Of a DNA stretch of 64,000 nt, positions 5,707 to 64,000 are shown piece by piece. Position numbers and translations under genes: made by a program. The DNA comes from Macrostomum lignano (Eukaryota): positions 289,579 to 353,578 of the forward strand of contig NIVC01001135.1 of the NCBI GenBank assembly GCA_002269645.1. Reading direction: 5' to 3'. Position 1 is the first letter of the stretch. Every line of letters starts with the position of its first letter. Below the pieces are notes generated by a model. The model searched no databases. It had not been told where the DNA came from and worked only from the letters and a program-made list of their open reading frames with translations.

Positions 5707-7296
5707 TCAGTGCCTGCCCCGCCCAGTCTTGTGCGTGTAGAACTTGTTGAAGTTCTCCGTGATGATCGGCACGGGGATCGCCAGGGTCAGCACGCCCGCC
5801 ACGGCGCACACGGAGCCGACGATCTTGCCCAGCGGGCCCTTCGGCACCTTGTCGCCGTAGCCCACGGTGCACATGGTGATGACCGCCCACCAGAACGCGT
5901 CCGGGATGCTCTCGATCTGCGAGCCGCGCACCTCGGCCTCCACATAGTAGATGGTGGATGAGAACAGCAGGATGCAGACGATCAGCGCCACCAGGAAGAG
6001 TCCGAGACCTTCGATGCTGGCCCGGAAGGTGAGCACCAGCACCTGCAGGTCGGCCGAGTGCTTGGTGAGCTTGAACACCCGGATGAGGCGGACAACTCGC
6101 AGGAAGGCCAGCGAGGCGCTCGACCGGGCGCCCTCGCAGCTCATCGTGACCAGCACATTAGTGAGGGTGACATAGTACGGCACAATGGCCGACAGGTCCA
6201 CCGCATTCTTGATGTCCTTCATGAACGCCTTCTTGCACGGGCAGACGAGGAAGCGGACCACCAGCTCGATGGTGAACCAGGCCGTGCAGGCCGACTCGGC
6301 CACGAAGAACGGGTCGAAGAAGTTCGGCAGGCCGGACGGCACGCAGTGCGTTCCTTTGAATTCGTGGAGCGTCTCGGCGCAGAACAGAATGATTGACAGG
6401 ATGGTGAAGACCACCGACACGATGGCGATGAGGAAGGCGGGCGCGCTGGTCTCCGGGTACTCGAACAGCATCCAGACGGCTCGCTTGAACGGGTGCTCGG
6501 GCAGCACGACAGTCTCAGAGATGTAGCCTTCGTCCTTCTTGTAGGCGTCGATGACCTCGCGCTCGATCTCGTAGAACTCCAGCTCGGACAGGAAGATGTC
6601 GTCCGTGACGGTGGGCGGCCGCTTCAGCTTGCCGCCGTACTGGTAGTAGTTGAATACGGCCTCAAAGGTGGGCCGGTGCCTGTCAAAGAAGTACTCGTGG
6701 CTGCGCCTGTCGAAGTAGCGCGCCCGCTTCTGCGGGTTGCCCAGCAGGGTGCGCGGGTGCTGGTTGAGGACGCCCAGCCGGGTCTCGAAGTGCATGCCGG
6801 ACACGTTCAGGCGGACCCGCTCGCAGCCCAGCAGGTGGCAGTCGTGGAAGGCGGATGCCGCCGCTGATGCCGCTGACACGGCTGGAAGGTGCCGGGCGGA
6901 GGGAATCGGCGGGGACCGGAAGCCACTGCTGCCGCTGCGATGCTGTCGGTTGTCGTTGTCGTCTTCGCCCTCTGAAACGGTGACAACCGATGCAGCTTCC
7001 TCTTCCTCATCGTTGTCCTCGTTCTCTGCCGCTGTCGCCTGCTGCCTCTGCCTGTAGAGGCGCAGATGCGATGTCTGCGACTCGAACCGCACCAGCTTGG
7101 TGCGCCTCGAGGAGCCGCCGCCGTCCCCGCCGACGCCAAATTTGTTTTTCTGCTGATTCTTCTTCCTCTGGTGCCGCTTCTGCTGGTGCTGCTGTCGGCT
7201 GTCTGACTGCCCGCCAGACATGCTGAGGTCCTCGCGGGAGTGGCTCATTGTGCCCAGGCCGCCGCTGGGGCTCATGTAGGAGGGCACGTACAGCAT
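5707..7296 (-). CDS. Voltage-gated K+ channel, Shaker (Kv1)-type, single exon, 529 aa
   Basis: T1 domain (ERVRLNVSGMHFET...EYFFDRHRPTFEAVFNYYQYGGKLKRP), S1-S6, S4 RVVRLIRVFKLTKH, pore WWAVITMCTVGYGD, S6 PVP gate (LAIPVPII). ATG in CGCCATG context. Confidence 0.96.
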   Translation of the reverse strand: MLYVPSYMSPSGGLGTMSHSREDLSMSGGQSDSRQQHQQKRHQRKKNQQKNKFGVGGDGGGSSRRTKLVRFESQTSHLRLYRQRQQATAAENEDNDEEEEAASVVTVSEGEDDNDNRQHRSGSSGFRSPPIPSARHLPAVSAASAAASAFHDCHLLGCERVRLNVSGMHFETRLGVLNQHPRTLLGNPQKRARYFDRRSHEYFFDRHRPTFEAVFNYYQYGGKLKRPPTVTDDIFLSELEFYEIEREVIDAYKKDEGYISETVVLPEHPFKRAVWMLFEYPETSAPAFLIAIVSVVFTILSIILFCAETLHEFKGTHCVPSGLPNFFDPFFVAESACTAWFTIELVVRFLVCPCKKAFMKDIKNAVDLSAIVPYYVTLTNVLVTMSCEGARSSASLAFLRVVRLIRVFKLTKHSADLQVLVLTFRASIEGLGLFLVALIVCILLFSSTIYYVEAEVRGSQIESIPDAFWWAVITMCTVGYGDKVPKGPLGKIVGSVCAVAGVLTLAIPVPIITENFNKFYTHKTGRGRH

Positions 7297-7560
7297 GGCG
7301 ATGGTGACTGGCGGCTACTGGCTCAGCTGGGCGGGCTGCTATTGGCTGTCGGTCGCTGCTGCCCGTCAGCCGCTTGTCGCTCTGGCAGCTGCAGTTGAGT
7401 GCGGGAACGGGGCTTGAGTCTTCGAAAAAGGGACATACTTGAGCAGTTTGTGCGTGTCGGCAGGGTTAGAAGCTAATCTTTCAGGTCCTCAGAAGCTAAT
7501 CATATGAGTTGGACGCTAAGAACTTACGTTGGAAGCTTAATAAATATACTTTACAGGAGC

Positions 7561-31691: not shown

Positions 31692-33608
31692 CTAGAGCTG
31701 AGTCTCAAAAGCGGATGCCGAGGCGGCGACAGCGGAGCCATCGGCCAAGTCATCAGTGGTGGCAGCGGCAGAGGCATCTGGCGGCACCAGCAGCTTCAGG
31801 TGCAGTAGGTAGTCTCTGATAAGCCTGGCCGCGTGCAGAGCCCGCCGAGACTGCAGGGCCAGCTCGCCGGCGGGACGAAGCCGCAGCTTCAATAGACGCC
31901 GGCCCTCGGTGTTGAAGGCTAGAACACAGTCCAGGCGGTAGGACAGGCAGGGCGGACTAGCGGGGTCGGAGCCTGGCGCCAGCAGGTGAATGCCGGACTC
32001 GCCAACCGCCAGAGTGTGGCTCGAATCCGCTCCGACTGACAAGGCAACGCCGGCTGCGCAGGAGCCCGAGGCGGCGAGGACGCGAACGTCAAACTGAGCG
32101 CAGCCAAACAGCGGCTGGCAGGATCGGGAGCAGGCTTCGATAAGCATCAAATCGAGATTAAAGCGCTGATCGGCTTCGCTGACGCTGCCAGTTCCGCTGT
32201 TGGAAGTCTCCGCTGCTGCTGCGGCGGCTGTAGCGGCGGCGGCAGCAACTCGCCGCGGCGCAACTTGATCGCGCCAGGCCAGAGGCAGGACGCGAAGAGC
32301 GGCCGAGGGAGAGGAAGCTTCGCGGGCGGCTCGAATGCCGCACAGTTCGGCGGCTAGCCGGGCATCCAACGGCAGCCGTCCATCGTAGACATCGGCGAGG
32401 CACTGCTGGGCGAGCAGGGCAGCCTCGGCCCGGTCGCCGGTGCCAACCAGCGGCGGAACAAAAAGGCGCTTCCGGCAGACCAGGCGAACGGGACCTGGAG
32501 CGCTGGGTCCGGCCAGCTGGCAGAGCCGCTCCCAGCGGAACAGGACGTCCCCGATGCAGTCAGCTGGTCCGGTTGGCCGCTCGAGCCTGCCAAGCTGCTC
32601 GTAGAGTGCCCAGCCGACTGCGGAGGCGGCCAGAGGGATGCGGGCCAGCACGACCGTCAGAGCCTCTGAGCCGGTCAGGCGGGCATGGTAGTCAAGCCGG
32701 CGCTGGTCACCGTCAGGCAGCTGTACTGAGGCTGATGCGGCGGCGCGGCGGTACAGCGCTAGAAGCTCCGGCGCCGATGGCGGACACAATCGCGGAGGCC
32801 GGCCAGTTAGAAGGCAACGATTGAGACAGCGCAGGCAGAATTGTGCGCACCTGCCAGCCTCGGTGTGGCCTTCCAGAGCTGCCCGATCCAGGTGGCATCG
32901 CAGGTAGGCTAGCACAAGCGGTGCGGACGGCGCGGCAATGGCGCACAGGGCGCACAGCAGCCGGAAGGCGCGCTCGCAGGCGGCCGACTGCCAGTCGCAG
33001 GTGGTCTGGCGCACCAGCAGCAGGCAGAGCTCGCTGCAGAGAGGCCCGCCGCCAATGCAACGCAACAGGAGAGCCTGGGCGGTGCGTACCGCGGTCGGCT
33101 CGGCCAGAGATTCGACGGCCTCGAGTAGGCGCAAGGCAGCGGGAAATTTCGCGGCGGCGGCCGCCTCCTGAGCGTCGGGGTGGATCAGAAGCGGCCGAGC
33201 GTCCGGTCGACCGGAGCGGCGTCTGGCCCAGTAGGCCGGCCGGTAGCTGGCTGGGTCGTGGCGCCGACCGCTGCTCCCGTTGCTGCCCGGACTGCCACCG
33301 TCGGCACCGCTGACGACGGCTGCAGGCGGCGTTGTCTGGCGTCGTTTCATCGAGCCGCCGCAGGGTCCTCGAGCCGGCGCTGGCGGTGCTAGCAACCCGG
33401 ACGCGGCAAGGTCGCGCCTGCAGCGCTGCACATCCTCGGCTAGGCGCTGCCTGTCGGCATCGGTAGTGGCGACGCGTTGCAGCAGAAGCTGGCTGGCCTG
33501 CTGCAGCCGGCCAGTTGAATTGGCACAGTTGCCATGCGGATGCTGCTGCTGCATCTGGCGCTGCCCGCCGGGCCTGGCTAAGAGGCCCGAGGCCGGATCA
33601 GTTAACAA
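31692..33608 (-). CDS. MyTH4-FERM domain protein (myosin-tail/PLEKHH-like), single exon; first ATG at 33554
   Basis: MyTH4: AQALLLRC...LCSELCLLLVRQTT...RAFRLL...PS...YLRCHLDR...AQFCLRCLNR...PPSAPEL. FERM: VQLPDG...WALYEQ...IGDVLFRWE...LVCRKRLF...DVYDGRLPL...LFGCAQFDV. Confidence 0.85.
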   Translation of the reverse strand: MLTDPASGLLARPGGQRQMQQQHPHGNCANSTGRLQQASQLLLQRVATTDADRQRLAEDVQRCRRDLAASGLLAPPAPARGPCGGSMKRRQTTPPAAVVSGADGGSPGSNGSSGRRHDPASYRPAYWARRRSGRPDARPLLIHPDAQEAAAAAKFPAALRLLEAVESLAEPTAVRTAQALLLRCIGGGPLCSELCLLLVRQTTCDWQSAACERAFRLLCALCAIAAPSAPLVLAYLRCHLDRAALEGHTEAGRCAQFCLRCLNRCLLTGRPPRLCPPSAPELLALYRRAAASASVQLPDGDQRRLDYHARLTGSEALTVVLARIPLAASAVGWALYEQLGRLERPTGPADCIGDVLFRWERLCQLAGPSAPGPVRLVCRKRLFVPPLVGTGDRAEAALLAQQCLADVYDGRLPLDARLAAELCGIRAAREASSPSAALRVLPLAWRDQVAPRRVAAAAATAAAAAAETSNSGTGSVSEADQRFNLDLMLIEACSRSCQPLFGCAQFDVRVLAASGSCAAGVALSVGADSSHTLAVGESGIHLLAPGSDPASPPCLSYRLDCVLAFNTEGRRLLKLRLRPAGELALQSRRALHAARLIRDYLLHLKLLVPPDASAAATTDDLADGSAVAASASAFETQL

Positions 33609-34599
33609 CCGCTCGCTGACCCGTTAGAGCTGTTAATAATATAAATGGCGGACCCCGAGGCCAGCCTGGCGCAGCTTCAATACAGCAAATTAAGTGGAGC
33701 AGCGACAGACAAAGCTAGCGGAGTGCCAATGCGTTGAGACCGGCAGGCCGGAGAGGACATAAATTGGATGGCCAAGAGGGGGGGGTAGAGAGTTCGAGGC
33801 TGGGGAAGGATTGGCCGAGAGCCAATAACAGTCGCATCATAGGTGAGAATAGACAGGTCCCAAAAGTGACTACTAGTAATACTATATGCCGTGTAAAGGC
33901 AACGCGTACACTCATTTTTTTAATTACTCCCGCTCTAAACTGCTGTACAGTTTGATGCGCAGCGAATCATTGCGAGCCAGGTGAGAAAGATGGAAAGTAA
34001 AAAATCTCATACAGCCAAATGTTGCACACGCGAGCTGCTGGAATGGGGAGGGCGAGTGTTTGCTCTCTCTCTCCCCTCTCACCTGTCCTTTTGGCACTCA
34101 GCTTTCCTATCTGTGCAAAGAGCAATTAATTATTAGGACACCTGGAGAGCACTTGCCAAGTGATAGACAGCCAGAGAGCAATTCAATTCGATGCCTCTAG
34201 CTGAGCGAGAAATGCTAAAATAACCGAATGGCTCTGAGTGACAACTGCAGAAATCTAAATCGAACTGAAAAAATGATTTATATCAGTGAAAAGGGCTCCT
34301 TAAATGTGATGCTACTTTAACTTTTCTCCTAATGATTTGATCATATTTATATAAAATTTATTTATATGAGGGCTGTCCAAAAAGTAGTGTTACTTTACAC
34401 TATATCTCTTATTCTGCTAATCCAAATAACATCATTTTGCACAGATTTATAGTGGCAACTCTCTTCTTCATATTAACTTTAACATGGAAACAAAAGTTAT
34501 AAACTAAAATATAGCAGGACCAAGAGGTTCGTGCCCTGACTAAAATCCTCAGATCTAATGGTTACCTTCTCAGTTTTGTCAGCCGCATTATCAATGTGT

Positions 34600-42859: not shown

Positions 42860-44200
<1,341 letters not shown>

Positions 44201-48364: not shown

Positions 48365-49704
48365 CTACAATTTCAAAGGCAGCAGGCTCAGAAAAAGCGT
48401 CAGGGCCAGCGAAGTCAGCAGCTGAGGCGCCTGAACGCAGAGTTGAGCTGCCCCGCTGACCTGACAGAGCTCCCGGTTGCCATCATGGCAGGTCAACTGG
48501 TGAATGGCGATGCCAAGTGGCCAACTGGCTGAGTAGCCCCTGATGCTGTCCGTGATTAAGAGCGTTTGGTTATCCGCGAACCTGTAGCCTTCGGTAAGCA
48601 GAGTTGCCACGTAGACACTGTTCATGCAGAGGTACGGCTCGTACTGACCAGTGACTGGTGGATTGACGCACACTGCCCGAGCTGCTTGGGCTAGTTCGCC
48701 GACTTTGACGTTCCCTGGAACCGAGCTGGACAAAAGCCTGTTCTATTTAACATAAAGGCAGTGTAGTAGAAGGAGCTGATGGCCACAAAGTTGCCCACTC
48801 TGACCCCGGGCGGTTGGTGCACGGGCACGATACGCAGCGGGATGCGAGCGATCTCAGAGCACAGACGGTGCCGATCGGAGCCGGCGACGCCAGCTTCGCC
48901 TCCCACGTTGATTGAAACTGTGCCAAAGCTGAAGGTGGACCGGTAGGCCGGGTTAAGGCATGGCGAGGTGTACAGGTCCTTATTTGGTTCGCTACTGTTG
49001 TGGCCGAACATGTATAGAGCGGCCTGTGACATACCCAAGCCGAGGTAGCTGTGCTGGTGTAGGACGTAAGACTTTCCGCGAACGGTTTTGAACACCTTGC
49101 GATATTTGTCGTTCGCGTTGTCAGTTTTGGGCACAAAGGTGATCTGTGTAGAGCCGCCGCCGAGGTCCAGCATGCCGAAAGTTTCACCGCCGGGCTTATC
49201 GAAGGAATCCATGAGGAAGTTGACGGCTACCCAACCAAATTCTGCCTCTTCCTGGCCGCTGATGACGCGCACAGCACGCTTATCAGTGCTGGGCACCAGG
49301 AAGCTGGACCGACGGAGAATCTCGGCAACAGCGCGGACGACACGGTCTCGCTGTTCAGGCGTCAGCAGGCGCAGGCCAGCCGTGGCGCGCACGATGACGC
49401 TAGTTTCGGCGTGGTACTTAGTGGGAACTTTCTCAGTAGCAAATTCCATCAACGGCTTGAGGTTCTCACGAAGTCGGGGAAGTGCATTAGGAAAGGCCGA
49501 TAGGCCGGGATTGACTTTCTCCTCCTCGAGGCTCTCGATGCGCAGACCAGTGGAGTGGCTGAAGTCGGTGCGGAATGAAAACACATTGATACGGGTCCCC
49601 GTGCTGCCGGCGTCAAGCACCAGAATGTACTTCTTATTGGACGAAACAAGAGGCGCTGCTGTCGGCAGCAGGAGCAGCATCGGCAGGATCTTCGGCAGCA
49701 GCAT
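48365..49704 (-). CDS. GDA1/CD39-family NTPDase (apyrase), single exon, one frameshift near 48735
   Basis: ACR1 LDAGSTGTR, ACR2 PGLSAF, ACR3 ATAGLRLL and ISGQEEAEFGW, ACR4 LDLGGGSTQ, HSYLGLG, ACR5 SWPLG. N-terminal signal peptide and hydrophobic C-terminus. Adding one T to a T-run joins the two ORFs. Confidence 0.92.
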
Positions 49705-50639
49705 CTTTGCTGTGTAGAGAAAGTTTCTTTCGAAAACGTCCAATGCAGTTGAATTTAGCTAAGCGTTCGGTACAACATATGAACGCATTCCATTGGCCAG
49801 GCAATTCCCTGCCACTGCGCCTCTCTGTGAATGGACCAAAGTCATTGCAAATTTCCTTGTGACATTTTCAACACTACGGTTCACATCACGGGCGTTTCTG
49901 CCTGGTTGCGCGCTGGATAAATAATGATAGGAAGCAGCAACATAAAGCTAAATTGTGCCTGCAGCGGTTGGTAGCTCAGCGATGGGAACTCGACCGAATA
50001 TCTCGACCTCGGGGTCATAAATTCATAAATTAGCTGGTTAGAGGAGAGTTCCCAGTGCAGTGACAGCTATTAGAGTGGCTGATCTACGAAAGTGAGGAGC
50101 TAGATACTGCATGAGAATTGCACTTGGTCGTCAAATTGGATATCCGAATTAGAATAATCGAGTTTTAGAGCAAATGTCACATTTTAAATTGTGCAATTTC
50201 CTGTCCAAATTTGTTATTCCGCTTTTTTTGATAACCGACACTGCTGGTATGAACGCTTGCCAAGTCATGCTTTGACGGGTCCACGAACTCTGTGAATAGA
50301 CAACTGCAAACTGCAGCAAATTTGAATGCAACACACACACACTTACACGAAAGACTTGGAAAGCCTGTTTATGGCATGAACCTCTTATGTTTATCCATGC
50401 GCTAGCCAGCCTCGCCTCTCGAGCTATAGGACTCCAACAACGAATAAAATCGGGCCGTTGTAAACACAGGCCATGGCTGCATCTGTAATACGCTATTTCC
50501 TCAGGTATGAAGCTCAAGGCACTGTCTAAGCCCATAAAACCTGGCTGCTACACTACCAAATCGGCTTGTCAAAGTACGCCGTGGAAATAAAGTAAAATTA
50601 CAGCAATCACTCCATCCTAGATTGACTTTCGCGATCGAT

Positions 50640-51250: not shown

Positions 51251-54200
51251 TTACACTTGCACAGAAGTTATTGCTGAAGGCGGCTCCTTGCCGCTTCTTT
51301 CCAGTGGAACTGCGTCACTGTCCACCGAATCTCCTCTGTCGTGACGCTCCGTAGTCTCCGAGGTCTCAATCCGCTGCGCAGGATCTGAGTGTACATCTCC
51401 GTCTCTACTATTGTTGGATGTTACTCCGCCTTCCTCCACGAAGACGGTTGACTCGGCTTTCTCGGCGTCCGACTGTGGAATCCTTGCGTCCATTGCGGCC
51501 GCGCAGGTGCAGTGGCTCCACGTGTTGCAGCCGGTTCGGAGACGATCGCTGAAATAAAATGTTTGATACAAGCAGCGTTCGCAGGCTCCAAATGGAATTG
51601 GGCAAGACAGTAGTCAAGCAACAAGAAGGCAATTAGGAATGTCGCGCACACGTACAGGGTTCACTTTGGCTTTCTCGTCGTCCGGCTTGTACTCACTGTG
51701 CCTTTGGGGTCGGATTGCACAACATACAGTGATGCTTATACTGCAGCTCACTGTGTGTGCCTTTGGGGTCGGCCTTCTTAGGAGGGATTGCACAACATAC
51801 AGTGATGCTTATACTGCAGCTCAGTGTGTGCCTTTGGGGTTGGCCTTCTTAGGAGGGATTGCACAGCATACAGTGATGCTTATACTGCAGCTCAGTGTGT
51901 GCCTTTGGGGTTGGCCTTCTTAGGAGGGATTGCACAGCATACAGTGATGCTTATACTGCAGCTCACTGTGTGTGCCTTTGGGGTTGGCCTTCTTAGGAGG
52001 GATTGCACAACATACAGTGATGCTTATACTGCAGCTCACTGTGTGTGCCTTTGGGGTTGGCCTTCTTAGGAGGGATTGCACAGCATACAGTGATGCTTAT
52101 ACTGCAGCTCACTGTGTGTGCCTTTGGGGTTGGCCTTCTTAGGAGGGATTGCACAACATACAGTGATGCTTATACTGCAGCTCACTGTGTGTGCCTTTGG
52201 GGTCGGCCTTCTTAGGAGGGATTGCACAACATACTGTAATCTTATACTGCAGTCGAGCTGCAGGTCAATCTAAACCGTACTAAGCCTACCTAAGCCTCGC
52301 ATGCAGTTTATTTACTTTCCTTTGACTAAAAGCTTACAGAATGAACTCGCCGGTATAAAGCAGCGACACTCCAGCGTCCGGAATGCCCAGATTGGACAGG
52401 ATGCCGATAATTACGATGATGCTGGAGCTCGGCACCGAAGGTAGGGACAAGCCGGACACGCCCGCAAGGAATCTGGAAAATTTTAGGACGCTGAAACGAC
52501 TATGACGATACAGTAGTGCGTAATTTGCAACTCATATATACGAGGATTTATTGCTGAGGATATGCACCAACTTACTGCAAGTAGGAACGCAAGGATATGA
52601 GAAAATTACAGATTGGCTTTGAGGCAGCGTAAACCTGCAATGCTGCTTTTGGGCCTTACAAGTATATAGAAATATTTGCAGGAGGGCTCTGGGTACCTTG
52701 TCGCAATTCCTTCCGGTTACATTCCGGAGACAATTCTGCATATTTCAACTCACTCCTGGGCACATGCAAGCGCGCCAACACTGTACGCAGGCACGCACTC
52801 ATACGCATGCTCACACAGGGTGTGCCGACGCCCTGACTTTCTAATCGTCAGGCATGTACACTCTGTTTGGGGGGGGGTACGCCAGTTTTTGTACACAAGA
52901 CCCGAATCAAACCAGGGGTTGTGGCGAGTCAGCTACTCCGCTTTACAGGTGAAGGGCTTCGAATCAACAAAATTAATTCTTAAGTAACTTTCTTACACAA
53001 TTAATATGTAGTTTCCAAAGCTAAGTGGCGTGCCAGTCAGCTGAGCCAAGAATGTCACTGAGGCGGCTATGTAGGCGCACGACCCGTCCGAGTTAGTGTT
53101 GCAGCACAGCGGCAGGATGAACCGGGAGATGCGAGGGCGGAGACCCGCGTTGTCGGCGCATTCAAGCATCACTGGCAGGGCTGAGACGCTGAATAAAGTG
53201 CGAGAGGTGCAAAGCAGGACTGAGGGAGGTGTTGCAGGAGTGAGGGAGGTATTGCAGGAGTGAGGGAGGTGTTGCAGGAGTGAGGGAGGTGTTGCAGGAG
53301 TGAGGGAGGTGTTGCGGGAGTGAGGGAGGTGTTGCAGGAGTGAGGGAGGTATTGCAGGAGTGAGGGAGGTGTTGCAGGAGTGAGGGAGGTGTTGCAGGAG
53401 TGAGGGAGGTGTTGCAGGAGTGAGGGAGGTGTTGCAGGAGTGAGGGAGCTTTTGCTGGATGCAGGTGTAAAAGAGGTGTTGCAGGTGTAAAAGAGGCGTT
53501 GCAGGTGTAAAAGAGGCGTTGCAGGTGTAAAAGAGGTGTTGCAGGTGTAAAAGAGGCGTTGCAGGTGTAAAAGAGGCGTTGCAGGTGTAAAAGAGGCGTT
53601 GCAGGTGTAAAAGAGGTGTTGCAGGTGTAAAAGAGGTGTTGCAGGTGTAAAAGAGGTGTTGCAGGTGTAAAAGAGGTGTTGCAGGTGTAAAAGAGGTGTT
53701 GCAGGTGTAAAAGAGGTGTTGCAGGTGTAAAAGAGGTGTTGCAGGTGTAAAAGAGGTGTTGCAGGTGTAAAAGAGGTGTTGCAGGTGTAAAAGAGGTGTT
53801 GCAGGTGTAAAAGAGGTGTTGCAGGTGTAAAAGAGGTGTTGCAGGTGTAAAAGAGGTGTTGCAGGAGTGAGGGAGGGGTTGAGCTGGAGTTGGAAGCTTT
53901 TAGTTTCAGGCCAAAGTTTTACGTGGCTTAGAAAGCAAAGCAATGATATATTTTTTTCAAGTACTTCTACAATACTTTTTTTAAGAACAGGTTAACACTA
54001 GCAATCCAGCCCGTTTGGGGAGCGCAAAAATGAAAATGAAAATATGGCTGAAAATAACAAAGAATGGACCCATGCTTCCAGTAAGCCTTGACATCCCAGC
54101 AATTCCCCATGAGCCTTGACATCCCAGCAATTCCCCATAAGCCTTGACATCCCAGCAATTCCCCATAAGCCTTGACATCCCAGCAATTCCCCATAAGCCT

Positions 54201-56122
54201 TGACATCCCAGCAATTCCCGAATAAGTCTTGACATCCCAGTAATTCCAAGTAAGCCTCGACGTCTCAGCAATTCCTCTAATAAGCCATGAAATCTTAGAA
54301 ATTTTCCCACCAAGCCTTGGAGTCTGAGCAATTTCCCATAAGCCTTGACATCCGTGCAACTCCTCCCATTAGCCTCGACGTCTCAGCAATTCCCCCAGCT
54401 GTTAGCCTCATCCCAGCAATTCCCCCAGTAAGCCTTGACATCCCAGCAATTCCCCATAAGCCTTGACAATGACATCTTAGCAGTGAAATGTGTAAGCGTT
54501 GACATTTCAACAACCCCCATAAGCCTTGAAATCTCAGCAATTTCCCATAAGCCTTGACATCTTGGTATAAAAGAGGTGTTGCAGGTGTAAAAGAGGTGTT
54601 GCAGGTGTAAAAGAGGTGTTGCAGGCGTAAAAGAGGTGTTGCAGGTGTAAAAGAGGTGTTGCAGGTGTAAAAGAGGTGTTGCAGGAGTGAGGGGGGGTTG
54701 AGCTGGAGTTGGAAGCTTGTAGTTTCAGGCCAAAGTTTTATGTGGCTTAGAAAGCAAAGCAATGATATATTTTTTTCAAGTACTTCTACAATACTCTTTT
54801 TAAGAACAGGTTAACATTACTTAATCTACCTGCTATTAGCGCTGAATGCCACCAGGTAGGCCTTCATCATTTTCCAATAAAAAGGAAACGGATTACGACG
54901 GGCGAAAGCCAGAAACATGGCCAGGTGCACAATGAACTGATTGATAGTTAGAGCTGCCACCACTGTACCAATGAAGGTGCCGAGACTGATGAAGGTCTGC
55001 TCCATGTCCTGAACCTCGGCCAGTGATTTTGCTATGAGGCTCATCAAACCAAGCGGAAGACACCTGTTTGGTAAGGAATTGAGGTGCGAATGACCTTGCT
55101 GCATTCTTTCCCGAACATTATTACGTATTTCACCTTAGTTTCAGACAGAGGTTGAGCTCATTCGGACTCACCAAATGACTTTGCTCAGCAGCAGGATAGT
55201 CGCCCTTGTAACCGCGTCGAAAAATTCTCGAAAGGTCTCCGCACTTCGACTACCCATAGCCGATGTGGCCAGTCCGAAAAGTACACTCACAAAGAGCGCT
55301 CCAAGGATGTTCATGCCGCGGCTGGTGCCGTTCTGTCGAACAAAAACTGTGCTACCGTTTTGCAACTGCGGAGTGTAGACTGTTTGGCTCTGAAGTGGAC
55401 AACATTTCAGAAAATATAATTAGCAGCCTAAGATATCAGCATGCCTGTGATTTTTGGCATCAAATGACTACCCTCACTCTCCCTTTGATCTGCTTTGCTT
55501 CCAGTTGACCCTGGGCATCTCAGCAATCCCGCATGACCCACACCAATTCAGCGACCCCCCTCGTGAGCTTTGTGATCTCAGCCATTCTCCCCAAGAGTCA
55601 GCATTTCAGTGATCTCCCATGAGCCTTGACAACTTAGCAATTCCCCAATAATTAGTCTTCTATGTTCGGCAGGCGATTCTTTTATGGTTTAACCCTAACT
55701 CCAGGCTCAAAATTCCAGCAATCGTCCCACAAGTCTTGACGTCTCAGCCATTTCCCATGAGCTTAACATGTGCCAAGCCCATACCCAAAATAATGACGCC
55801 ACACAGGAAATCGAGTTCAGATCCTCTTGGTATCAGAGACGGTTCGATACCGCTCTGGCAAAGCCCCTCGGATTTAGTTTTTCAGTTTAGCCTTTCGCCT
55901 GTTATCCAGTAAACACGATTTTTGCACTCAATATAATTTCCAAGTTAAGTTTATACCGTCTCGAAAGCCATGGTGATGATGTTGTCCGGTATCAGGTTTC
56001 TAAAATGCAGTATAGGAGAAACATAGTGCTCTGTTTATTGTAAAAAACTATCGAGTAAAGAGTGCCTTAATTTCAGACGGCTCAACCTGAAAAGATCCGT
56101 CAGGATGTCAGATGTGGTGAGT
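51251..56122 (-). CDS. SLC1 (EAAT/dicarboxylate:cation symporter family) transporter; 3' seven exons, 5' exons not found
   Basis: Phase-consistent GT-AG exons 56122-56087, 55999-55957, 55389-55172, 55063-54830, 53188-52997, 52472-52338, 51548-51251 give DILTDLFRNLIPDNII, GMNILG, RRNPF, AFSANSSVSALP, RISRFILPLCCNTNSDGS, SVPSSS, LGIP, EFILDRLRTGCN. Confidence 0.9.
51694..52249. repeat. 71-73 bp intronic tandem repeat
   Basis: About 7.5 copies of (CA)CTGTGTGTGCCTTTGGGGTTGGCCTTCTTAGGAGGGATTGCACAGCATACAGTGATGCTTATACTGCAGCT. Confidence 0.95.
53220..53872. repeat. Two adjoining 20-bp minisatellites sharing the core GAGGTGTTGCAG
   Basis: (GAGGTGTTGCAGGAGTGAGG)n to about 53445, then (GAGGTGTTGCAGGTGTAAAA)n. 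Confidence 0.95.
54079..54560. repeat. 28-bp minisatellite (AGCCTTGACATCCCAGCAATTCCCCATA)n between duplicated flanks
   Basis: Tandem copies, degenerate at the 3' end. Segments of about 53760-53998 and 54570-54817 are near-identical direct repeats. Degenerate copies recur at 55510-55770. Confidence 0.9.
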
Positions 56123-56779
56123 CTGAGTAGTATACGTTTTTTTGACACAAAGCCGATTTCCTTATGGCGAAATACATAGTAAGTACAGGCCCAAAAAAAT
56201 GGCAGAGTCCGAAATTTCATGTGCACGCAGTCTGAAATTCCATGTGCACGCAGTCTGAAATTCCAAGTGCACGCTAAATATCTTTTACGCAACGTGATTA
56301 TTCAGACGAATTGCATATCCACCTGTCCAAAATACAAGTAACCGATTCTAGCAATGGTGACACAAACACACTTCAAAGGATTCCATTCAAGACAAATTTA
56401 CTCCAAAGCTATTCACACATTTCAAGTGTTATTGAAATATTGAAAACTTGTGAATATTATCACCCTTTTGAAGAAAGATAGTAAATGATCTATTCTTGAG
56501 TGCCTATAGAATTTTTGCACCAACTTGAGCAGATGGTTTACAGATACTATGTCAACAACTGCGTCAACATGCTTCTTCTTTATACTATATATATATACGA
56601 ACACACTGACACAGAAAATATTAAATAACTTAAACCAAGTTTACATTATACTACTTGTTCAACTATACTTACATCTTAAGTGAAATGAAGCGATCACGTC
56701 AGCAGGAATTGGCCGAGCGCTATGTTAAACAAGGTAAGATAATCACCTACTCTAGTTCAGTTTTCTTTTTTAGATTGAC

Positions 56780-56980
56780 TGTTCGCTATAGTTTAGTTTC
56801 TAGATTGATTGTTAGTTCGGTTTCTGTTTAGACCGATCCTCTGTTTGTTCAGTCTCTAGATTGATTTTCTGCTAGTTCGGTTTCTGTTTAGACTAATACT
56901 CTGCTAGTTCAGAATTTCTAGATTGATTGTCTGCTAGTTCGGTTTCTGTTTAGACTGATTCTCTGCTAGTTCAGTTTCTA
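56780..56980. repeat. About 60-62 bp degenerate tandem repeat
   Basis: GTTCGGTTTCTGTTTAGAC at 56815, 56875 and 56937. Confidence 0.85.
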
Positions 56981-56994
56981 TATACATTGTATAC

Positions 56995-57546
56995 ATGCAC
57001 CTATACCAAATTTCCCTCATCTTATCCATTATTATAGCATTCAAGAATGGTTTCTTCACGCGGCCACCTCCAGATCAGTGCAAACGCATTTGCCACGACA
57101 CCACCACATCCAATTCTGCTGCAAGAGCATCATATTCTACATCTCTCGCCAGAGTAACCTCGATTCATGTCGAGAGACAGACAACTGAGCTAGATCGCAT
57201 TTACACAAGAACTGATGTTATTCAGTCAATTAGGCAGCAATCGAACCCACGACCAACTGACCAACTGCAGTATGCACCACCACCACCATCACCAACCAGC
57301 TACAATGACCCAACAAAGCAAACTTGCAGTAAGCCTACAAGTACCAAACCAACGACAGCAACTGAAACACCATCATCATCAATTGCTATTTCTACCCAAG
57401 TTCAACCGCTGCTAAACTCGCCAATTATTGTACAGAAGGACATCAAGTCTGTAAAAGTCTCTCAAATGAGCACAGGCTTCTACCAAGTAGAATTAGCAAA
57501 GACCTGTAATACAACTCAAGTATTTGAATATTGGGACCTATCTTAA
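56995..57546 (+). CDS. Hypothetical 183-aa protein with a hydrophobic N-terminus and a Pro/Thr/Ser-rich stalk
   Basis: ATG-initiated ORF in AT-rich context; no family recognised. Confidence 0.45.
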   Translation: MHLYQISLILSIIIAFKNGFFTRPPPDQCKRICHDTTTSNSAARASYSTSLARVTSIHVERQTTELDRIYTRTDVIQSIRQQSNPRPTDQLQYAPPPPSPTSYNDPTKQTCSKPTSTKPTTATETPSSSIAISTQVQPLLNSPIIVQKDIKSVKVSQMSTGFYQVELAKTCNTTQVFEYWDLS

Positions 57547-57799: not shown

Positions 57800-58492
57800 A
57801 GCCATGGTCTGGCTTTTGCCTCAACAGTATGATTTAGCTGTGGTCCAGCTTTTGCCTCAACAGTATGATTTAGCTGTGGTCCAGCTTTTGCCTCAACAGT
57901 TTTTAGCCGTGGTCCGGCTTTTTTGCCTCAGCAGTATGATTTAGCTGTGGTCTAGCTTAAAACTGCATCAACAGTGATTTAGCTATAGTCCAGGCTTAAC
58001 TACCTCAACGATGATTTAGCTATAGTCAAGGCTTAACTGTCTCAACAGTAATTTTAGCTGTTGTCCAGACTTAACTGCCTCAACAGTGATTTTAGCTGTG
58101 GTCCAGGCAACTGTCTCAACAGGGATTTAGCTGTAGTCCGATTAGCTTAACTGTCCAGTTATTTAGCTGTGAGCCAAGCAGCAGCACCCGTCTCAACAGT
58201 GAGAATTAGCTATGGTCAGCTTTACCTCAACTGTGATTTGGCTGCTGTGGTCTAGCATAACTGACTCAACAGTAATTTTAGCTGTAGTCGTCCAGCTTAA
58301 CCACCCGTCCAGTTTTATAACCATGGTCCAGCTTAACCACCGTCTCAACGTACAGCGATTTAGTCGTGGTCCAGCTTAACCGTCTCAACGTACAGTGATT
58401 TAGCCATGGGTCTAGTAGCAATTAACCGTATCAATAGTGATTTAGCCGTGGTCCAGCTTAACTGTCTCAACACAGTAATTTAGCTTAGTCCA
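57800..58492. repeat. Degenerate array of about 36-bp units with two mini-hairpins per unit
   Basis: About 19 copies of consensus GATTTAGCTGTGGTCCAGCTTAACTGTCTCAACAGT. Confidence 0.9.
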
Positions 58493-59195: not shown

Positions 59196-60394
59196 ATGGC
59201 AGCTTGCATCAAGACGGAGTCAATTGTACGCTCCGACTCGAGTCCGATTTTTTACGTTGGAGAGCAGTCTACAACCACGACTGGTTCGTCCTGCCAGTTT
59301 CGATCTATTACGTGGAAACCATCAATCGAGTGTACAAAATGGTACCCAATTATATTGCAAACCAAGGCTCCAATGGAGCTTTTTCGTGGAATCGCAGAAA
59401 GGCCAGAGCTCGATCATCCGTCTTGCAGACACGACTCTCGCGACGCAGTAAGTGTCCAATTTCATCCAGACAGCTGCGATAAGGAACTCTTCCACTCTCT
59501 CCGGTGAGCACCATATTAAATTTATACAATTAATTTTAGGAAACTATATTAATAATTTATATAATGTTTTGCAGTCAAGTCGAAAAAGGTCTATCGGTCA
59601 AGTTGAACGAGATTCAAGATGCTCGACCCTTGGCACGACTAACAAAACCAGCTCATCAGCATGCTAACGACGTCCTCGAGTTTGTGCCTCAACAATGGCT
59701 GGCTATAAAGCCTGCTTACCCTTGTGCCACAATCAGGATCAGCAACGATCATCCACACGGGAAGGAGGTGTCCATTTCCGATTTCAAAGGTGTCAGCGGT
59801 ACCTACCAAATGACAGTGCAAGCAACGAGCTTGTATTGTCCAAAAGGCTGCCTCGTCTGGCGCATTACATTCGCTGTGCGCTCTCTGACACTCATAGAAT
59901 CTTCCGACAACATGTTGCAGCGCCTCGACATGTTCAAGGGAGTGCTTGCACACCTACCCGCGACCAAGTCAGCAATTAGAAGCAGGAGTCCGTCCCCAAC
60001 ATCTACCTGTGAGCAAGAAGAAGCAAATGAACAAAGCCTGCAGAATTCAAGCCAGGTGACACCTGCCAAGTCACCTGCAAAGCGTCGGTCTACCACCACC
60101 GTATCGAAGAAGTCGACTACATCGAATGCAGCGCCAGCCTCTATTGAACCGCCGCCTAAAAAGCAAGTTCGAAAACGCAGCGGTGCAAAACAGCAAAACA
60201 ATTCTGCCGAAGCTGGTGCAGATGGCACAGACTGGGTGGAGGCTCCACCAGCAAAGATCTTGGTGAGTACACCTGCCTCTGGAACCAGGGTAGCGTCCAA
60301 GGAGACAGCATTTTTAAAGCGTGCTGCTGCGGACGCTACTACAGCTAGCGTGTCTTCATCGGACGACTCGTACAGCAGCTCTGATGATGAGTAA
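59196..60394 (+). CDS. Putative OB-fold single-stranded-DNA-binding protein (DUF2738/large-DNA-virus type), 2 exons (59196-59503, 59575-60394), about 375 aa
   Basis: A 71-bp AT-rich GTGAGC...TTTTGCAG intron joins two ORFs in phase (CG|T). PIILQTKAPMELFRGI resembles the LQTP.M..PFG motif; TVQATSLY...WRITFAVRSLTL resembles the last OB strands; acidic tail SSSDDSYSSSDDE. Confidence 0.55.
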
Positions 60395-60604
60395 CAAAAT
60401 GTTTGACTAATTTTATCCAAGTTTTAACTAACTTATTCCACTATATTTATCAAATTTTTGGCTAGGGAAATATTATTTTTTAGGGAAAAGCTCAAAACAT
60501 TTTTTGCTACTCCTTGTACGCTAACCAGGTTTTGTAATTTAATATTAGAATTTACGATAGTATAGTCATGTTTAACTTTTCTTATTATTTATTTTCCGTT
60601 TTAG

Positions 60605-61162
60605 CGACTTGTCCTATTAATAGTTACTGCGAGTCTGAAGCTGCACCCGTTTGAAAAATTTGATTTAAAGCAGACCAAACAGAAGCTACAGACCAGAAAC
60701 CGGTTTTGCAAACTATTCCTAAGCCGACCAACAATGCTAAAGACAATTTATTCAAACGCAAAAATCCAACTTTATCCAGCAGGAAAACTAACTATATATG
60801 GCTGTAAATCAAATTCTCAGATAGTCTCAGTTTTACGATTTATCAACGACACTATTAATTGTGTAGATTTTGATTCAGTAAAAATTCAGAGCAGTACCTA
60901 TGTCGGCTTTATTGGTCATCTTTGGCCAAAATTCGGTTTCTCTAGTCTAAAAAGATATGCAGGCTACTATTCGAATTATCTGGTTGGATACGATGCAGAA
61001 AATTTCCCACAAGCAGTTTCTGTTAGATCAGCATCAAAACCAAGGCTTTTTTGTAACATATTTTTTTCGAAAAAGTTTGTTATTATGGGCGTTCAAAACA
61101 CTCATGAATTGAATAATATTCTTAACCATGTCAAGGATTTTTTAATCTCTGTTAATAACTAA
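60605..61162 (+). CDS. Divergent TATA-binding-protein-like (two TBP repeats); reading frame opens at 60605 after a splice acceptor, first ATG at 60734
   Basis: IVTASLKL..FDLK ~ IVSTVNLGCKLDLK; AKIQLYPAGKLTIYGCKS ~ TTALIFSSGKMVCTGAKS; VKIQSSTYVG ~ FKIQNMVGSC; YDAENFPQAV ~ YEPELFPGLI; KPRLFCNIFFSKKFVIMGV ~ KPRIVLLIFVSGKVVLTGA. Confidence 0.75.
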   Translation, partial: RLVLLIVTASLKLHPFEKFDLKQTKQKLQTRNRFCKLFLSRPTMLKTIYSNAKIQLYPAGKLTIYGCKSNSQIVSVLRFINDTINCVDFDSVKIQSSTYVGFIGHLWPKFGFSSLKRYAGYYSNYLVGYDAENFPQAVSVRSASKPRLFCNIFFSKKFVIMGVQNTHELNNILNHVKDFLISVNN

Positions 61163-61385
61163 ACTTAACAAGTAAACAATTGCTGTCAAATCGCAGTTGC
61201 GATGCATTCTTTTACAAACATTTTGTCTTTTTTTATTTATTTACCAATTGTTTTCTCTAATAGTAAACGTGTCAGCTATACCTATAACTAACCAAATCAT
61301 CATTTTTCTTACAGCCGCAAATGACAAACCGGATCATCTATTAATATTATGCTCGATACGCTCGTTGTCGAGCTAGGTGCACACA

Positions 61386-62122
61386 ATGCCGCGTGCACAA
61401 TGCCAAATCTGCAGAAAAAAGTTCAGTAATCAAGCCGAGCTGCATGCTCACTCGCATGGTGCTTGTTTTTCACCGCAACGATTACTGACCGGATCGCTGC
61501 AAAACCTGATCGAAAACCCACCAGATGGGTGGTCCATCGCTTTGCGCGAGTCAGCTCATCGTGGTCGGGTAAATTTTGTCGAATTTACTCCCACTCTTGA
61601 ACAACAAGGCAACAGCTCTGGCGAGTTACTTCCTGGCGAGTTGATTGCGTCTTTAAGAGAACCAATATTTAAAATATTGGAAAAAATTGGCTCACCCAGT
61701 TTATTAATAAGAGTCTGCTTTCACTTGAAAGTGACACTATTTCGACCGAAAACAGCAGCAGACGACAACGATGGCTCGAGCAGCGAAGAGATCATTTCGG
61801 TCTATTTTAATACCAACATTGCGACAATATCATTTGATGAGACGATTGCAAACAGTGACATGCTGTTATCTCCCGAGGCCTACAATGACTGGTTCGCACG
61901 CGTTATTAATCAGTTGTTAATAAAAATTGACAATTTTCAATCTCGAGGTAGTAATTGGCAATATAGAGCAATCGAGCAGCTAGACTTGATGCTCTGCGTT
62001 TATCGCAAAAGCCATGCAAGCACACTGTCAACAAATACGTCCCACGGTGGTGTGGGGGGGGCGGCGGCAGTGGTGGTGGTGGCGGCGGTGGTGGTGGTGG
62101 TGGTGGCGGCGGTGGTGGTGGT

Positions 62123-62154
<32 letters not shown>

Positions 62155-62270
62155 GCGCGGGGAGTCCGGTCCAGTCCGGTCCGGTCCAGTCCGGTCCGGT
62201 CTGGTTAAGCAGCAATCGTTTAAAGTTCCAGTCTCAATCGGTCGCAAAGCTGGAGCAGTACTGCTTCTAA
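61386..62270 (+). CDS. C2H2 zinc finger + GSxW-motif protein resembling the N-terminal region of Polinton pPolB; low-complexity tail
   Basis: CQICRKKFSNQAELHAH (C2H2); IDNFQSRGSNWQYRAIEQLDL resembles the F...GSGW....I..L.L motif of Polinton polymerase-associated ORFs. No exonuclease or polymerase domain follows. Confidence 0.55.
62050..62202. repeat. (GGT/GGC)n trinucleotide tract followed by (GTCCG/GTCCA)n pentamers
   Basis: Seen directly. Confidence 0.9.
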
Positions 62271-62777
62271 AGCCGCACAGAGCAGTTTAAAGCATCAAGA
62301 CTATTTAAGAGTCTTACACAAGCGACAACTTGTGTTTTCGCGCATGCAGTCCATTCGTTCTCGAAAACAGAAAGTTTTTTTTTGATGCAACAAAGAAAAC
62401 TTGCACTAAGCTTCTTCGATACGAAGCGATCCTGGACAAGTTCAATTAATTCGCTACCCTTTGGACACTGGCACTTGGCTAATTAATTAACAATATGCTC
62501 TGATCTCTTTTGTTGTACAAAGTAATAGCATGCTATAGAAGACTGTAACCCATCATTAATTTTTTCATTGATCATTATTTACAATAAATAAATGATACCG
62601 GCATTCGTTTAAATTATAATTTTAGCACTTTTTTGTGTTTAATTATTTGAAAAAGTATATTTTTATAGTTAGATTCTCAAGACTAAGCTTGTGTTTGTAG
62701 TAGACGTAAATGTAGTGCTATCGTTCATGTTTCAAGAAAAAAAACTTTTTTTTAAACTTTCAGCTACAAGAATCGAC

Positions 62778-63258
62778 ATGAATCCCGAGCAGCAGCAGCA
62801 ACAACAACTAACTGATCGTAAGCTTTTAGTTGAACGTCTATACGATTCGGCAACGATTCCGACCCGAAAAACTGTCGGGTCGATCGGGTATGATCTTTGC
62901 GCTGGCGTCGATGGTACCATTCCGGCCTACGAGTCCCGGAGTGTGCGAACCGGACTCAAAATTCGTTACCGCCTGGTACCTATGGCAGGATAGCGGGACG
63001 TTCCAGCATGGCTCTGCACAGCTTATTTGTTGGCGGTGGCGTTAATCGACCCCGACTATACTGGTGAAATCTGTATAGTCTTGTTTAATTACAGTCCGGA
63101 AGACTTTGAGTACTATGCCGGGCTCAGTATTGCACAACTGGTTCTGGAGCAGGCCGTGTGCTTCAGTCTATGTGACTGAAGCAGACAATTCGATTCGGAT
63201 GATTGAGCCGCCGACCAAGCGGCGCGGCTTTGGCGGCTTTGGCAGCACTGGCCAATAA
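62778..63258 (+). CDS. dut: Trimeric dUTPase with frameshifts
   Basis: [19 protein letters not shown](ID)PDYTGEI, IAQLV and [10 protein letters not shown] occur in order over shifted frames. Confidence 0.9.
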
Positions 63259-63349
63259 GTATAATAATAATAATAAACTGATTTTTTTCTTTGGTGATTG
63301 GTGCACTATGCGAGAGCTTTGTAAATACTATAAGCAATTTTAAAAATTT

Positions 63350-63790
63350 ATGCCTAAAATATATGTTGTAAAAATGTCTCCAGCGAAAGATCGAGGTTTT
63401 AAAAAGAAAAAGAAGAGCATTCGTAAAAGAAGAAATCTATTAGAAAGATTAATAAAAAGCAAACAAGGTTATGGTGTCGTAAATTGGTTAATTAATCATT
63501 TACCATTTGAAGCACATTTACCCGGCGGATATCAGTTTTGTGGTCCAGGTACGCAACTGCAAGCTAGGCTAGCAAAAGGACAACGAGGAATTAATCGGCT
63601 TGACAATTTGTACATGCTTCACGACGTGGCCTATGATAAAAATTCTGACGTGCAAGAGAGGTTAAAAGCTGATAAGCTATTAGATCGTGTGCACGAGAGA
63701 TTGCCCACGATCGTCTACTGGTTGGAAAGAAAACTAGCTGCGAAGTTGGTTACCAAGGTTATGCAAGTTAAGCAACGCTTTGGTGCTTGA
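63350..63790 (+). CDS. PLA2X (parvovirus-type phospholipase A2 domain) of Polintons/adintoviruses
   Basis: INHLPFEAHLPGGYQFCGPGTQLQARLAKGQRGINRLDNLYMLHDVAY...RLKADKLL: YxGPG calcium loop and HDxxY catalytic motif. Confidence 0.9.
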   Translation: MPKIYVVKMSPAKDRGFKKKKKSIRKRRNLLERLIKSKQGYGVVNWLINHLPFEAHLPGGYQFCGPGTQLQARLAKGQRGINRLDNLYMLHDVAYDKNSDVQERLKADKLLDRVHERLPTIVYWLERKLAAKLVTKVMQVKQRFGA

Positions 63791-63792
63791 AA

Positions 63793-64000
63793 ATGCAGCA
63801 GCCATACAATATGCAACTAGCTCACGATTCTACATTTATTATTGCTGGACGCTTCAAACTCGGGTAAACTGAATGGACGTTGTTTGTTGACTGAACGAAA
63901 AGAATTATTTGATAAAAAACCGTGCCGTCTTGTTTGGTGCCATGGATCAAGTTTGAAACCAGACGATCAACAACGAATTAGAACATGCTGGCAAAAAAGC
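63793..64000 (+). CDS. Polinton FtsK/A32-like packaging ATPase, 5' part (frameshifted, cut by the window edge)
   Basis: MQLAHDSTFIIAG(R)SNSGK(T)EW...LLTERKELFDKKPCRLVWCHG matches the L.HPFT.IIAGPSGSGKT...LL......F...P..I.WCYG pattern after 1-bp corrections. Confidence 0.8.

Follow-up and report, generated by a model that had tools for sequence, protein, structure and literature searches.

The locus and its host element

The window, by which we mean the whole 64,000-nucleotide stretch of the Macrostomum lignano genome analysed here (contig NIVC01001135.1, positions 289,579 to 353,578, forward strand), contains on its host side genes for a voltage-gated K channel (5707-7314), a MyTH4/RA protein (31692-33623) and a GDA1/CD39 nucleotidase (48691-49758), a piggyBac-type transposase fragment (43670-44131) and, near the insertion site of a mobile element, exons of a dicarboxylate symporter (52993-55400). 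The element begins at 56126 with a left terminal inverted repeat (56126..56233) whose first bases are AGTAGTAT; at this position genomic copies split into different flanks, and contigs from sequencing runs show loose ends. Between the repeat and the contig end, where the window stops before the integrase gene, all features lie on the forward strand. A first gene carries a GT-AG intron (56734..57037), and is followed by what we call the upstream gene (exon 1, 59196..59503; GT-AG intron, 59504..59574; exon 2, 59575..60394) and by an exon encoding two TATA-binding protein (TBP) repeats (60605..61162), identified by Pfam, profile and structure comparison. Downstream are the 5′ remnant of a protein-primed polymerase B gene (61386..62284, from comparison with other copies), a dUTPase gene (62778..63259; Pfam PF00692) that is frame-shifted in the assembly, the first gene of the virion module, PLA2X, with a parvovirus-type phospholipase domain (63374..63790; PF08398, E=4e-7), and the start of a packaging ATPase gene (63793..64000, from homology to complete copies). 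A degenerate tandem array of ~36-bp units, whose length varies among copies, separates the first and upstream genes (57800-58480). Between 62375 and 63881 the contig differs from the sequencing runs by at least 12 small indels, each common to three or four of the four runs, which suggests that the apparent frameshifts in dUTPase, PLA2X and ATPase are errors of assembly near the end of the contig.

A genome search with the TBP-like protein gave 83 matches from 97 candidates; full-length copies included 22 at 100% and 4 at 99% protein identity, and further families stood at 32-62%. Complete copies elsewhere in the genome are 18-21 kb long, with all genes on one strand, and six families share a single gene order: upstream gene, TBP-like gene, deoxynucleoside kinase, polymerase B, dUTPase, PLA2X and ATPase, then penton-like gene, small basic proteins, integrase, core, capsid and protease. 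The kinase is missing from the window's family; in other families it follows or overlaps the TBP-like exon (L022:9102-9800, L063:1219-1782), and on contigs C362 and C1431 the two share one open frame of 460 aa. Pfam matched the polymerase, integrase, dUTPase, kinase and PLA2 genes of the elements, and in the window's family, copies elsewhere gave matches of polymerase B to PF03175 (E=6e-20) and of the integrase to PF00665 together with the chromodomain PF00385. The protease reached only E=0.038 against the Pfam C5 protease, and neither the capsid nor the ATPase of the window's family had a Pfam match; the ORFs that we take to be capsid, penton and this ATPase are conserved in the expected order.

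The 108-bp terminal inverted repeat is also present in the copy on C84, and repeats starting AG were found in 8 of 10 assembled regions. A clean 6-bp target-site duplication flanks three of seven copies examined (C2529, C889 and C209) as well as that on C877, and is absent at C84. The six bases to the right of the C84 copy are the six to the left of the C2373 copy, which hints at a chimeric assembly. The TBP-like gene is carried in a multicopy Maverick/Polinton of the adintovirus type, in agreement with an earlier note, made from the letters of the window alone, that had called it virus-encoded. Nor is it a single-copy host TRF paralogue lying outside any mobile element; host TBP and host TRF are separate genes, with three loci each. 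About 3.16 kb of the polymerase gene is missing at 62284 in the window copy and in five of seven other copies compared; these copies probably represent the non-autonomous expansion of an abundant, near-identical polymerase-deleted subfamily that has kept the TBP-like gene and the virion module.

A divergent TBP domain

The TBP-like frame follows immediately on an in-frame TAG and is open for 185 residues from 60605 to its stop. Pfam PF00352 matched the window protein in two stretches (E=2.2e-7; 31 bits, with the curated cut-off at 22.9), the same entry was matched by 12 of 13 aligned proteins, and a profile built on nine copies that represent six families, compared with the PDB, returned 37 rows, 35 of which contain TBP (E 1e-9 to 4e-5); identity to cellular TBP is ~20%. 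The earlier note had described a frame of roughly 185 codons aligning with both TBP repeats, and had proposed HHpred/Pfam searches, structure prediction and phylogeny as checks. Its description and the first of these checks hold. Structure prediction agreed as to the fold and departed as to the geometry. The single AlphaFold2 model of the window protein, made from a shallow 9-sequence alignment, has a mean pLDDT of 89 and a pTM of 0.64; TBP was the best match both in Foldseek (E 2e-7) and in VIA-align (Z 12.2, 164 of 185 residues aligned), at an rmsd of 8.8 Å and a TM of about 0.43. In this model each repeat folds, and their mutual arrangement appears to depart from the canonical saddle; with an rmsd of about 9 Å the model does not establish a DNA-ready saddle.

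Ten copies of the exon gave 45 pairs, 34 of them saturated at silent sites; dN/dS was 0.11-0.29 in 10 of the 11 pairs yielding a value and 0.57 in the remaining one. By this measure the exon is under purifying selection across six divergent families. No intron-less retrocopy of the gene was found among 40 genomic matches. A word-seeded homologue search with the single window protein as query retained none of 36 candidates, and no relatives were seen when viral contigs were scanned with two alignments or when metagenomes were scanned with P0066.

A profile search of public data did recover relatives. We refer to the window's clade, with its six element families, as group A, and to other sets of TBP-like genes as groups B, C and RP. 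The profile search returned close relatives of group A and its sister set RP, whose proteins are encoded by eleven metagenome contigs; among the eight of these with ORFs listed, the longest four can clearly be assigned to Mavericks, and in the remaining four the gene is flanked by protease, capsid or penton-like ORFs. P0031, a relative from the RP clade, models as a normal saddle, with an rmsd of about 3 Å and, against most TBP chains, a TM of 0.65-0.71. The ORF before the RP TBP genes looked PC4-like by eye, an identification that we rejected at a profile-comparison probability of 0.7% and with no PDB match. A Pfam search of the M. lignano genome gave 330 candidates, of which 150 were scored, and most scored matches were TBP-like genes in Mavericks of groups B and C.

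In a tree of 52 rows, a subset of a 158-row quick tree plus four RP rows among which giant-virus TBPs are not knowingly present, group A joins RP with support of 100/97, and groups A, RP, B and C are separated from all other rows at 98/94. The best tree thus sets group A with Maverick proteins and away from TRF; forcing it together with host TRF costs 32.6 log-likelihood units at a p-AU of 0.055, which falls short of a formal rejection of that grouping, and long branches may attract.

Contact residues of TBP are given here in yeast numbering. Among the 15 TATA-contact positions described in PMC12209930, four are identical between the window protein and host TBP (F190, P191, F207 and V213), all of them in repeat 2, while identity at the repeat 1 positions is 0 of 7. 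Two features picked out in the earlier note are confirmed. The Asn of both NIV/NMV strands is replaced (N69 by L4, N159 by S96), and the first Phe pair is only partly kept, F116 being replaced by Tyr (Y57) and F99 lost (by register it falls at S40/R41/P42, in a loop without an aromatic residue). The second Phe pair is retained (F190 as F134 and F207 as F153), and repeat 1 differs from host TBP also at L114, replaced by Q, and V122, replaced by T. Two intercalating Phe residues are thus kept, one is Tyr and one is gone, so that the canonical set of four Phe and two Asn is incomplete. Over the six families, 8-9 of the 15 contact positions are invariant, against 27 of 185 positions overall (p 2e-4 to 2e-5). 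The DNA face therefore looks re-specified, not decayed.

The acidic C-terminal stirrup, D130/E132, is also invariant in sequence; the matching glutamates contact TFIIB, according to PMC10005294. Helix H2 is four residues shorter than that of host TBP and contains 2 Lys and Arg residues against 6, and with its basic residues mostly lost, contacts to TFIIA and TAFs are probably absent.

Splicing and the start of the TBP-like protein

The TBP-like frame lacks a usable ATG: its first Met, residue 44, already lies within the fold. As the earlier note had seen, it opens directly after a splice acceptor, TTTTCCGTTTTAG (60592..60604), which is in phase 0, and a pyrimidine tract with AG in the same phase, followed by an Arg codon, is present in all six families. 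The note had left a choice between a 5′ exon and a trans-spliced leader, and we found a candidate for each.

The first candidate is a predicted phase-0 donor (TTG/GTGAGT, the slash marking the cut; 60263..60268) that lies in the second exon of the upstream gene and shares the reading frame of the TBP-like exon. Read through, the upstream gene encodes 375 aa, and its second exon comprises a folded domain, a basic linker and an acidic, Ser-rich tail; the frame of exon 1 is conserved in other families and included in the public gene model P0234, which reads through the donor. If the donor is used, the TBP domain would replace the acidic tail of 42-50 residues, and the product of the window copy would have 517 aa. 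All six families have the pattern K-x-L/GTRAGY in phase 0 within the upstream ORF, 259-619 bases 5′ of the acceptor; with donor-like codons at 37 of the 132 Val-Ser pairs of the elements, the chance of six out of six is about 5e-4. A public gene model from another family, P0239, uses the same donor with a different acceptor.

The second candidate is the spliced leader of the host. Trans-splice acceptors lie ahead of the polymerase gene (61313..61314) and of dUTPase (62762..62763), where run X7 shows the leader as a loose end. The loose ends at 61314 and 62763 match a published 35-base leader that ends in ATG (PMC8629364), and a flatworm spliced-leader AUG can act as a start codon (PMC9851317). 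Joined to the acceptor at 60604, the leader AUG would be in frame with the TBP-like exon. The leader 24-mer has 58 genomic occurrences; the four loci that we read (L097-L100) are without a following GT donor and look like retrocopies or leader fragments.

The transcript data are contigs from four runs, none of them recorded as RNA; X1, X6 and X7 were called RNA-like by guess, a call backed by spliced joints. The joint of the first gene's intron is present in all three of these runs and that of the upstream gene's intron in two of the three, and neither in the DNA-like run. Among the differences listed, 17 of the 21 checked agree with a copy in which the polymerase region is still present, and the transcripts thus seem to derive largely from that subfamily. 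Neither a joint nor the leader occurs at 60604/60605 among the RNA-contig rows listed, beyond which lie a further 10 loose ends and 168 pieces; this counts neither for nor against either route. We consider it likely that the 517-aa fusion made by cis-splicing of the 60263 donor exists; the odds for a 186-aa form started by the leader's terminal AUG, which is compatible with the fusion, seem to us a little below even.

There is a weak lead that the upstream gene encodes a single-stranded DNA-binding protein: in the ESM Atlas the clusters nearest to its second exon are giant-virus proteins including DUF2738 and Pox_I3 (0.86-0.91), with recognition below threshold. Pfam, PHROGs and the PDB gave no informative match to this gene and the Atlas result for exon 1 was uninformative; a J-domain match (E about 1e-3, 55 residues only) was taken as chance. 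On the metagenome contig L139 (1186-2100) an upstream ORF and a TBP-like frame without the TBP N-terminus are joined in a single 305-aa ORF, which may be a frameshift error.

A box before late genes and its candidate reader

A predicted late promoter, the box TATAAGCA (63329..63336), lies 45 bases before the conserved start of PLA2X and contains the only TATAAG on its strand in the portion of the element that the window covers. The motif was first spotted by eye and then counted. The element set holds 42 sites in the 48.5 kb from PLA2X onward, 8 in the 65.6 kb before PLA2X and 9 on the opposite strand. A de novo count, in which no motif was supplied, also placed TATAAG first among 6-mers: it stands in 31 of 53 windows upstream of late genes and in 2 of 267 windows on the opposite strand. 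Of the 7-mers, TATAAGC came top, with 23 of 53 and 0 of 267, respectively. The enrichment is present in all six elements, and early regions yield no comparable word; the six being related, these counts are not independent, and p-values overstate their independence. Intergenic sites mostly lie 30-60 bases 5′ of an ATG, some sites fall inside coding sequence, the site before the protease gene is missing in two of the six elements, and a few boxes precede dUTPase, a gene that we count as early.

Repeat 1 of TBP, of whose seven contact positions none is identical here, contacts the 3′ half of the TATA box, the half in which the late box departs from consensus. The departures of TATAAG(CA) from the published consensus, YWTAWADN (PMC1935006), are at positions 6 and 7.

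Other lineages have other words. In five group B elements, TTAAGAA marks late genes (25 of 46 against 1 of 187). The same box also precedes the group B TBP-like gene itself. The top word of RP is TATGCAA (6 of 25 against 0 of 143), from three contigs only and with weak statistics; its 3′ end is common with the group A box.

Our main reading, to which we give a probability of about 0.7, is that the TATAAG(CA) boxes of the Maverick are bound by its own TBP-fold protein, which would recruit host TFIIB and RNA polymerase II to the late, virion-module genes. The left-hand genes (upstream gene, TBP-like gene, polymerase and dUTPase) would be expressed first by the host machinery, and their transcripts processed by cis-splicing and by spliced-leader trans-splicing. 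The TBP-like protein, with an N-terminus predicted to come from the cis-spliced 60263 donor, the leader's AUG or both, would then bind the boxes before the virion genes, where its acidic stirrup would bring in TFIIB and the polymerase, and so it would provide a switch from early to late expression. It would be expected to prefer TATAAGCA over TATAAAAG or scrambled DNA. An altered specificity for viral promoters had been the first suggestion of the earlier note, and it gains indirect support from the invariant, changed DNA face together with a TATA-like but non-canonical box before late genes.

The same note had offered as its alternative a decoy that titrates host TFIIB or TAFs. In a reading of this kind the protein would bind host TFIIB or regulators of TBP, and the boxes would be read by host TBP or some other factor of the host. 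The conserved TFIIB-facing stirrup, combined with differences at 11 of the 15 DNA-contact residues, would fit such a role, as would the non-canonical repeat geometry of the model. The replaced residues, however, are invariant rather than drifting, and the box varies with the TBP-like clade, as between groups A and B within one host genome, which a single host factor would not predict. We therefore rate a decoy as unlikely.

A role in replication or genome handling, in which the protein, perhaps as a domain joined to the upstream protein, would bind terminal or single-stranded DNA rather than act in transcription, strikes us as quite unlikely. The gene does stand among replication genes, with a conserved in-frame donor from a putative single-stranded DNA-binding gene, and PMC12209930 describes a divergent Giardia TBP without its Phe residues that binds single-stranded DNA. 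But the TFIIB stirrup is kept, the identity of the upstream gene is itself a weak lead, and such a fusion is not general: TBP-like genes of groups B and C (loci L103, L107, L113, L114, L115 and L118) and of the RP clade all have their own ATG and lack it.

Very unlikely, finally, is a reading in which a large DNA virus acting as helper uses the boxes as its late promoters and the TBP-like protein has another task: baculovirus-like late promoters have a TAAG core, TAAG is contained in the boxes of both groups A and B, and virophages use the late promoters of their helper viruses, but TA precedes 30 of 48 upstream TAAG sites in group A (0.4 expected, other DTAAG forms being barely enriched), a requirement that argues against a bare TAAG promoter; group B prefers CT (20 of 41), and the top RP word lacks TAAG.

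A wider extension of the main reading remains tentative, and we hold it to be rather doubtful as a whole. In this view the viral TBPs of animal Mavericks would form a lineage that is old and diversifying, each member having co-evolved with a non-canonical box of its own; in the flatworm lineage alternative splicing would put the TBP domain in place of the acidic tail of a single-stranded DNA-binding protein, so that recognition of late promoters would be tied to genomes in replication, and the spliced leader could start a free form.

The protein resembles eukaryotic and archaeal TBP (PF00352) in its two-repeat fold, second Phe pair with Pro, and acidic C-terminal stirrup; it differs in both Asn residues, the first Phe pair and a short, non-basic helix H2, and its gene is multicopy, mobile and dependent on splicing for its start. 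Like TRF2/TLF paralogues it has lost intercalating Phe residues, but host TRF is a separate gene, and the Maverick proteins keep F190/F207 and group apart in the best tree. Divergent viral TBP folds are also known from Nucleocytoviricota (Heterosigma akashiwo virus TBP and asfarvirus B263R-like proteins, the top matches in a viral structure library). These viruses have their own RNA polymerase, whereas no RNA polymerase gene was seen in the present 18-21 kb element.

Beta- and gamma-herpesviruses provide an established case of viral TBP mimics that serve late promoters (PMC7498053; see also PMC8360532). As functional analogues only, KSHV ORF24, EBV BcRF1 and HCMV UL87 share with the Maverick protein that they are virus-encoded and, as is proposed here too, would read a variant TATA element in late promoters with host RNA polymerase II; the herpesvirus proteins are described as reading TATT within a six-protein complex and binding the polymerase CTD through an N-terminal domain, whereas the Maverick protein, a compact domain, has a TFIIB-type stirrup, and partners of that kind were not identified for it. 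A further precedent is a 'TBP' label in maps of MELD viruses, given as a figure-legend abbreviation in a section on non-animal datasets (Starrett et al., bioRxiv 10.1101/697771; PMC8502044). It likewise denotes a TBP-like gene in a midsize Polinton-related virus; the text covered describes no function, promoter box or splicing for it, and its figures or supplements might include animal cases. The literature covered on animal Mavericks, which includes three Polinton surveys and few subscription papers, describes no TBP or matching box. Against this background three things appear to be new: a protein start that depends on splicing, trans-splicing of the leader to transcripts of the element, and co-variation of box and protein between lineages in one host.

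Given a compact viral TBP and a predicted target box for it, the timing of capsid-gene expression becomes testable in Mavericks, which are without an RNA polymerase of their own. The present element also shows that host spliced-leader trans-splicing can act on the transcripts of a Maverick. As far as we are aware, TBP specificity has long been thought nearly fixed; three lineages with three different boxes would offer a natural series for its rewriting.
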